This document shows positions 646-1,410 of a stretch of DNA of 1,983 nt, in pieces. The stretch is from assembly GCF_003334765.1 (NCBI RefSeq), contig NZ_QOWT01000075.1; one strand, 5' to 3'. The notes beneath the pieces are model-generated. The model was not told the origin of the DNA. It made no database searches and saw nothing but the letters and a program-made list of their open reading frames with translations. A program made the position numbers and the translations under genes. Source of the DNA: Escherichia coli. GTDB taxonomy: Bacteria; Pseudomonadota; Gammaproteobacteria; Enterobacterales; Enterobacteriaceae. How positions within the stretch are numbered: position 1 is the first letter of the stretch; each line of letters opens with the position of its first letter.

Positions 646-1023
646 TTATACGGTGGTTGCGGGCGCTGCCGGTGTCGGATAAACAGCCAGATAAACGTAA
701 CCACAGGAGCCGAGGGTGTCGGCTTCGCAGGTCAGCCCTTTCGCATACAGTGTCACGGTATGCTGATGGCGGGGATTCAGTTCACCACTGGTGAGCATGA
801 GCTCCAGTTGTTTCATCAGCAGCGGAAAGGCCTGGTCCAGGTGGTATGCATCTGCATCGCTGAACCGGCCTCTGATACCGGCGCGGTCGGCAAGGTAATG
901 CAACCGGTTACCCTTCTGCACCAGACGTGCCCCGAAACAGGGCGTCACGGTGCAGGGCAGTCCCCACCAGAGGCGGTCGTGATTGTCGTCGGGAGGCGTT
1001 GTCCCGGGGAGTGTGTCTGACAC
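646..1023 (-). CDS. cbeA: Type IV antitoxin, CbeA/YeeU/YfjZ/YafW family
   Basis: 125-aa translation MSDTLPGTTPPDDNHDRLWWGLPCTVTPCFGARLVQKGNRLHYLADRAGIRGRFSDADAYHLDQAFPLLMKQLELMLTSGELNPRHQHTVTLYAKGLTCEADTLGSCGYVYLAVYPTPAAPATTV matches recalled YeeU/CbeA closely. Start codon is GTG (plus 1021..1023 is cac), preceded by GAGGA at 1031..1035. Stop TAA at 646..648. Lies directly upstream of the toxin, as expected for this pair. Confidence 0.88.
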   Translation of the reverse strand: MSDTLPGTTPPDDNHDRLWWGLPCTVTPCFGARLVQKGNRLHYLADRAGIRGRFSDADAYHLDQAFPLLMKQLELMLTSGELNPRHQHTVTLYAKGLTCEADTLGSCGYVYLAVYPTPAAPATTV

Positions 1024-1030
1024 GATAAAG

Positions 1031-1035
1031 TCCTC
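1031..1035 (-). promoter_or_regulatory. Shine-Dalgarno GAGGA for the GTG-initiated antitoxin gene
   Basis: Plus 1031..1035 is tcctc, i.e. GAGGA on the minus strand, about 7 nt upstream of GTG at 1023..1021. Confidence 0.6.
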
Positions 1036-1072
1036 ACAGAAAATCGGTTAAGAATGGTCCGGTAGTGGCGAT

Positions 1073-1091
1073 AATTCTGCTCATCAGAATT
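1073..1091. repeat. Perfect 7-bp inverted repeat with 5-nt loop (AATTCTG ctcat CAGAATT) in the yeeT-cbeA intergenic region
   Basis: Read directly from plus 1073..1091. It sits about 50-70 nt upstream of the antitoxin start. No U-tract follows on the transcribed strand, so it is not a classic intrinsic terminator. Confidence 0.6.
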
Positions 1092-1324: not shown

Positions 1325-1333
1325 GAGAATAGT

Positions 1334-1339
1334 CCTCCT
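1334..1339 (-). promoter_or_regulatory. Shine-Dalgarno AGGAGG for yeeT
   Basis: Plus 1334..1339 is cctcct, i.e. AGGAGG on the minus strand, 9 nt upstream of the yeeT ATG. Confidence 0.75.
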
Positions 1340-1396
1340 GAATGTGAAAGTAAGAAACAGCTGAGAAAGAGAAACTGAAGTGATATGAAGGTGATT

Positions 1397-1408
1397 GTGA
1401 CGGTGACG
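1397..1408. repeat. Tandem hexamer GTGACG x2 (minus strand CGTCAC CGTCAC) just downstream of the RadC-like stop
   Basis: Plus 1397..1408 is gtgacggtgacg. On the minus strand TCAC recurs four times within about 30 nt (CGTCACCGTCACAATCACCTTCATATCAC). Confidence 0.5.
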
Positions 1409-1410
1409 GG

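Follow-up and report, generated by a model that had tools for sequence, protein, structure and literature searches.

In the window analysed here, a stretch of 1,983 nucleotides of Escherichia coli DNA, the RadC-like gene and yeeT (DUF987) are separated by an 86-nt spacer, which carries tandem hexamers, is derived in origin, varies in repeat number among homologous loci, lacks significant predicted structure and is compositionally extreme. Our leading, still tentative interpretation is that it is a single-stranded, G-poor leader for independent initiation of yeeT translation, which would have replaced coupling to radC. The spacer would then be the untranslated yeeT leader inside one radC-yeeT-cbeA-cbtA mRNA: an ancestrally tight, translationally coupled radC/DUF987 junction would have been pulled apart in one Escherichia lineage of CP4-44-like islands, and a low-complexity C/U- and C/A-rich segment would then have expanded via small tandem duplications (CGTCAC, TTTCTC), the outcome being an unfoldable G-poor RNA tract directly upstream of a good Shine-Dalgarno sequence (SD). 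Such a tract could be a landing pad for 30S subunits, making the yeeT start independent of radC translation, and we infer that it enhances or permits this initiation.

Locus and anatomy of the radC-yeeT spacer

All genes of the window lie on the minus strand. The RadC-like gene, encoding a JAB-domain protein, occupies positions 1411-1887 (stop codon TAA at 1413-1411), with an anti-restriction gene upstream of it, only the start of which falls in the window; it is followed downstream, on the same strand, by yeeT (1103-1324, ATG at 1324-1322), cbeA (646-1023), cbtA (222-599) and a truncated yeeW/DUF5983 (to position 225). In strain 042 the anti-restriction gene ends at 1903, and the radC reading frame has two start options, ATG 1902 (163 aa, MERSTMQQL...) and 1887 as given in RefSeq (158 aa). 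E. coli 042, 55989, O104:H4 and other strains contain the window with 100% identity. In 042 and 55989 radC, DUF987, cbeA and cbtA are annotated in a row, and the matching locus in those strains is a CP4-44-like island, which adjoins cadCBA and carries agn43, irmA, DUF932 and the anti-restriction gene upstream of the window. Relatives of the module were found in 4,942 of 5,426 complete E. coli genomes at a median of 3 places per genome. This island module unites anti-restriction, radC, DUF987, cbeA and cbtA genes, and ~90% of complete E. coli genomes have it, mostly more than once.

The genes from radC to cbtA, placed on one strand with neither promoter nor terminator between them, are consistent with transcription as one mRNA. 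On the coding strand no sigma-70-like promoter was detected in or near the spacer, either in the window or in K-12, and the spacer itself contains neither an intrinsic terminator nor a start codon for a small ORF on that strand. A 9-codon antisense ORF (MKVIVTVTG) was dropped from consideration, as it is not kept in the 62-nt spacer type described below.

The spacer fills exactly the 86 nt between the radC TAA and the yeeT ATG (1325-1410, minus strand), its transcript being composed of 33% C, 37% U, 20% A and 10% G. Read in the direction of transcription, it contains first a C/A-rich block of YCAC motifs (1380-1408), common to the 56-, 62/68- and 80/86-nt spacer types, in which TCAC occurs at transcript positions 5, 11, 17 and 28 and the hexamer CGTCAC is repeated twice in tandem (1397-1402 and 1403-1408; GTGACG on the plus strand), one unit being present or absent among homologous spacers. 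Further downstream lies a type-specific pyrimidine tract (1340-1379), predicted to be single-stranded and barely alignable with the 62/68-nt type; this type-specific centre holds a second exact tandem hexamer, TTTCTC x2 (1363-1374; GAGAAA x2 on the plus strand), overlooked in the original prediction made for this DNA. The yeeT SD, AGGAGG (1334-1339; CCTCCT on the plus strand), stands 9 nt upstream of the ATG. The tandem GTGACG, the AGGAGG site and a purine-rich plus-strand tract at 1341-1380 had all been predicted and are in place, the tract being 80% purine and the richest 40-nt stretch in the window. Of the four "phased" TCAC motifs that had been proposed, the number was confirmed (GTGA starts at 1380, 1391, 1397 and 1403, with a fifth copy at 1344), but not the phasing, since the spacing of 11, 6 and 6 nt follows no single phase.

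The repeats exceed what chance would produce. Five TCAC in the spacer have P<2e-4 against mononucleotide shuffles and P=0.036 against dinucleotide shuffles, and two separate tandem-hexamer loci within 86 nt appear in 0.08% of dinucleotide shuffles (P=8e-4). Together with the strand bias and the presence of the YCAC block in all three long-spacer types, these values uphold the earlier view that the region is more than random spacer. No further copies of the spacer were found within 20 kb of the island.

The repeats had also been likened to an iterated protein-binding site, for which we found no support. A regulator acting on DNA (e.g., the direct-repeat response regulator CreB) at an internal promoter for yeeT-cbeA-cbtA appears very improbable to us. 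The TCAC/YCAC motifs at 6- and 11-nt spacing are indeed kept in all long-spacer types, and the K-12 sequence TTCACaaccacATCAC resembles TTCACnnnnnnTTCAC, which we take to be the CreB "cre tag", K-12 CP4-44 matching it at 9 of 10 positions. However, the half-sites of the window version begin with A/G instead of T, and the number of motifs, their spacing (6/6/11 in the window, 6/5/12 elsewhere) and their individual bases vary, copy number and repeat bases doing so even within types and the block itself being polymorphic in the 62/68-nt type. The lack of a promoter-like site on the coding strand speaks against such a regulator as well, and the in-silico GalR site of this region lies inside yeeS, outside the spacer (PMC5110547).

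Derived origin and repeat variation

In distant relatives 8-15 nt separate the radC stop from the DUF987 start, or the two genes overlap, and the stop codon adjoins or overlaps the SD. Such short junctions occur in K-12 CP4-6 (ykfG-ykfH), K-12 CP4-57, E. coli strain A23, a Citrobacter-type locus, Klebsiella oxytoca and others, and since the divergent relatives have 8-15-nt or overlapping junctions, the long spacer is a derived insertion in one Escherichia clade. The K-12 junctions ykfG-ykfH and lfgB(yfjY)-ypjJ share with the window homologous genes in the same order, the SD core GAGG and the start ATGAAAAT, but comprise 8 nt, with the stop overlapping the SD, whereas the window has 78 extra nt from stop to SD. 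The long spacer is confined to the DUF987 clade starting with MKIITRGEAM, which was found in E. coli, E. albertii, K. oxytoca plasmid DNA and one protein record named K. pneumoniae. The hairpin-forming yeeT codons 4-8 (1302-1314; ATC ACC CGT GGT GAA = ITRGE) are specific to this clade, the short-junction DUF987 clade having ISKRQ in their place, so that the spacer and the first yeeT codons change together.

Junctions were collected from complete E. coli genomes, viral contigs and metagenome contigs, and the 124 spacers beginning with TAACCC were taken for comparison; a contig scan with a single protein query returned only 4 loci. The spacers are 62 nt (n=73), 68 nt (~40), 86 nt (n=11) and 63, 80 and 85 nt (one each) in length, and a 56-nt form is located on an IncF plasmid. 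The 62- and 68-nt forms differ by one CRYCAC unit and the 80- and 86-nt forms by one CGTCAC unit; repeat number thus varies from one to two, recurrently, within both types, with the motif block retained, and three copies were never seen among the 124 spacers. In this recurrent variation of tandem hexamer copy number between homologous loci the spacer is like the simple-sequence-repeat contingency loci; unlike them, it never has a long array and lies outside ORFs and promoter spacing, its one or two untranslated units differing from the many units and on/off switching of phase-variable repeats. The ends are common to all long forms (5' CCCGTCAC(CGTCAC)AAYCAC...ATCAC and 3' TTCAG(G)AG(G)) and the centres are unlike between types, as past the first 20 nt 22 of 500 shuffles align as well as the 86- and 68-nt forms do. 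Across 817 complete genomes there is almost no variation in the 86-nt type (806 records at or above 99% over 106 nt), and it looked stable in a sample of 60 records from these carrier genomes, which contained one 105-nt match and no 80-nt form.

Growth of the spacer by slippage or small tandem duplications is indicated by its tandem hexamers and by centres that indels have scrambled. This bears on an alternative which we consider somewhat unlikely, namely that the insertion is neutral filler, a slippage-prone, harmless, low-complexity segment in which the SD-proximal bases alone are constrained and the strand bias was inherited from repeated duplication of pyrimidine-rich units. The copy-number polymorphism of the hexamers, the scrambling of the centres in three types and the fact that the relatives work without the tract are in agreement with it, but the three independently rearranged types all keep G at 8-10% and stay unstructured, and the near-invariance of the 86-nt type is likewise unfavourable to it. 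If the spacer is filler, it is a tidy case of intergenic growth by hexamer slippage.

Two coding explanations of the spacer were rejected. The junction lengths of 8, 11, 56, 62, 68, 80 and 86 nt all leave a remainder of 2 when divided by 3, and past the radC stop its frame meets no further stop until a TGA that shares bases with the yeeT ATG (ATGA). Frame conservation of this kind, however, would be expected by chance (~0.4) where purines are scarce, and neither the 15-nt nor the overlapping junctions conform to it. An N-terminal extension of YeeT was set aside as well, the longer DUF987 proteins being C-terminal extensions or having unrelated upstream contexts; the spacer variants fall at first and second codon positions of the putative extension frame.

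Several irregular loci were met during the comparison. In E. coli A23 (L014, NZ_CP028752.1, 1499-2321) an IS1A insertion leaves only the last 22 codons of the radC-like gene, and despite it the 8-nt junction and the DUF987-antitoxin-toxin genes are intact. In three islands (L007, L008 and L013, positions 1-559) an unrelated "hypothetical protein" replaces cbeA downstream of yeeT, so the radC-spacer-yeeT unit is carried with differing downstream cargo. Proteins 94-100% identical to E. coli YeeT are also encoded on short contigs of a Mesorhizobium caraganae assembly (L003, 464-bp contig) and a Lachnospiraceae MAG (L005), which look like E. coli contamination or mis-binning. Among the YeeT proteins, variants (P0001, P0033, P0039) with an internal duplication (120 aa) or with a 26-residue insertion resembling the alternative-frame ORF 1123-1308 of the window are likely local duplications or frameshifted assemblies.

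Constraint, folding and composition of the spacer

Within types, the spacer is far less diverse than the 4-fold sites of the genes on either side (0.014 vs 0.08, 0.032 vs 0.11 and 0 vs 0.09). The spacers fall into discrete types, but the flanks (radC and yeeT, loci L006-L149) form a mosaic across them: the 86- and 62/68-nt types have 0 fixed differences at 4-fold sites of the flanks, and of the 23 4-fold sites that segregate in the 86-nt type, 20 are shared with the other type, which suggests frequent recombination among paralogous islands. Since the flanks can gain diversity by recombination and the type-specific centre cannot, the spacer-versus-flank comparison is not clean for the 86-nt type, and the combination of an invariant spacer with variable flanks was rejected as proof of selection on this type; such confounding works in favour of neutral filler. 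In the 62/68-nt type, a 35-nt core that stops just past the SD contains 1 site with pi>0.1, as compared with 5 of 24 sites outside the core and 30% of the 4-fold flank sites. This core reaches ~25 nt upstream of the SD and has polymorphic sites on both its sides, which argues against filler constrained at the SD only; the 6 nt between SD and ATG vary freely, and the repeat block ranks with the most polymorphic portions of the spacer. The conservation pattern fits a translation-initiation region and provides moderate evidence of selection.

The 92-nt leader has an MFE of -4.4 kcal/mol, its centroid is empty and its z is +1.09, 172 of 200 shuffles folding at least as well; longer contexts gave z of -0.16 and +0.59, and significant structure was found in none of the three spacer types. 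The mean P(unpaired) at -60..-21 is 0.73, compared with 0.21-0.53 for the other leaders examined. Rfam searches of the window and its K-12 homologue gave chance-level matches only (E 2-9, far below gathering scores), to eukaryotic lncRNA and snoRNA models and, elsewhere in the window, to Pseudomonas P26. These results contradict the structured leader of the original prediction, and we regard a structured leader, riboswitch-like element or sRNA gene as exceedingly improbable. Weak local SD hairpins of 5-6 bp are what could be adduced for it; in the 62/68-nt type the candidate SD hairpin has no compensatory changes, the rare variants TTCCGTC and CAAAGG breaking its pairs, and the test for compensation between types is hampered by their being too different for alignment.

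Pyrimidine-rich S1 contact regions upstream of the SD are translational enhancers, and the spacer has a single-stranded pyrimidine-rich tract directly 5' of its SD. The interpretation as a leader for independent yeeT initiation is favoured also by the composition being kept across types while the sequence is not: all three long types (56, 62/68 and 86 nt) have C 33-38% and G 8-10%, the centre always being C/U-rich. Such likeness could, on the other hand, have been inherited via duplicated pyrimidine-rich units. Also unfavourable to this interpretation is the C content of 33%, which is more usual for a Rho-loading site than for an A/U-rich E. coli enhancer. Finally, deleting or randomising everything upstream of -20 leaves the predicted SD accessibility unchanged (0.41 vs 0.40 +/- 0.06), so an insulator holding the SD open is unsupported by in-silico deletion, and this result is in line with neutral filler. 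Neither TSS, 3'-end, Rho, GcvB or translation data at yeeS-yeeT nor any discussion of the radC-yeeT junction was found in the literature and readable supplements.

ACA-motif and C/A-rich translational enhancers upstream of the SD serve as a precedent for the leader (PMC3879156). Like the enhancers of yifK and dppA (PMC3879156), the spacer combines a single-stranded purine-poor tract directly upstream of the SD with CAC/ACA repeats in flexible position; unlike them, it lacks ACA enrichment and above-chance pairing with GcvB and is intercistronic and lineage-specific. Specifically, the window spacer has 2 ACA (P=0.28 against mononucleotide and 0.84 against dinucleotide shuffles), and the 3-4 copies in the 62/68 types are not significant against dinucleotide shuffles. 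The same likeness raises the question of whether the spacer is a target of a GU-rich sRNA, e.g., GcvB, a silencer of C/A-rich enhancers, or of a sequence-specific RNA-binding factor, which we judge to have little chance of being correct. The known GcvB targets are C/A-rich enhancers (PMC3879156), and the 62/68-nt type contains CACAACCACAUCACACC, which is predicted to pair with GcvB R1 (-19.9 and -23.8 kcal/mol). However, these duplexes are no better than those of dinucleotide shuffles (fractions 0.27 for the 62-nt and 0.13 for the 68-nt form), and the best R1 duplex of the 86-nt type bypasses the C/A block (fraction 0.57).

The composition of the spacer is an extreme one: it holds the most purine-rich plus-strand 60-nt stretch of the 20 kb parent locus (0.75 vs a mean of 0.50, sd 0.07), and of all 78-nt windows on the 20-kb transcript strand, the one whose C/G is highest (4.8 vs a median of 1.0) falls on it. 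The latter value is favourable to a Rho-loading (rut-like) intercistronic attenuator, in which naked C-rich, G-poor RNA after the radC stop would let Rho load and, if translation of yeeT is not prompt, terminate transcription inside or beyond that gene, thereby limiting read-through into the cbeA/cbtA toxin-antitoxin genes. This we consider rather unlikely, neutral filler being about as likely as a Rho-loading site. With C 33%, G 10% and 0.22 YC per nt, the spacer equals or surpasses the annotated lambda rutA-rutB stretch in composition (C 32%, G 11%, 0.15 per nt) and, as in lambda tR1 (cro-cII), is unstructured and placed directly after a stop codon, before the next start; the coupled relatives with short junctions are devoid of such a tract. 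The likeness is nevertheless compositional only: the spacer is shorter than lambda tR1 and has no boxB/nut, its similarity to rutA and rutB is at chance (P 0.1-0.98), little RNA is free (62-86 nt between the terminating and the initiating ribosomes), and the 86-nt type has a strong SD (AGGAGG). Relative to the ~70-80 nt of a rut site, the 56-86 nt from stop to SD are marginal, while composition and lack of structure fit.

A more speculative proposal, to which we attach a low probability, is that the spacer types (56, 62/68 and 80/86 nt) represent alternative alleles of an RNA element dedicated to control; by loading Rho and/or ribosomes, this switch would set what share of the transcription and translation coming from the anti-restriction/radC genes arrives at CbeA/CbtA. 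Each type is near-invariant while the flanks recombine freely, and were the types such alleles, each could give a different set-point or answer a different trans-acting factor. The spacer is best filed as an ordinary lineage-specific unstructured leader/enhancer or rut-like tract, outside the curated RNA families and representing no new element class. Should the tract adjust translation or Rho-dependent polarity, the uncoupling of the downstream genes from radC in one lineage would be accounted for, and the tract would offer a simple experimental handle; whether functional or filler, it is a modest, local finding, which bears on how cbeA/cbtA toxin-antitoxin expression is set in widespread islands.

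Minor features within radC and antisense to yeeT

Inside radC, a perfect 6-bp hairpin, GGTGAAGAGGGTTTCACC, is located at ~1654-1673, within a region (~1649-1706) that gives the weak Rfam P26 match (E 5.1). The counterpart of this hairpin in K-12 yeeS is GTGAAGAGGGTTTCAC, listed as an in-silico GalR site (PMC5110547).

On the plus strand, antisense to yeeT (window positions 1017-1075 and 1302-1324), two promoter-like sites were noticed, CTGACA-16-GAAAAT and TTAAGA-16-GATAAT, along with a terminator-like hairpin, TCACCACGGGTGA followed by TGATTTTCAT, whose end coincides with the yeeT start codon. Of these, the hairpin and the first of the promoter-like sites are also present in K-12 CP4-44 (L015, 1619-1592 and 1340-1328). 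Taken together, these elements could outline an antisense RNA of ~250-300 nt over yeeT, their counts being near chance for scans of this kind.
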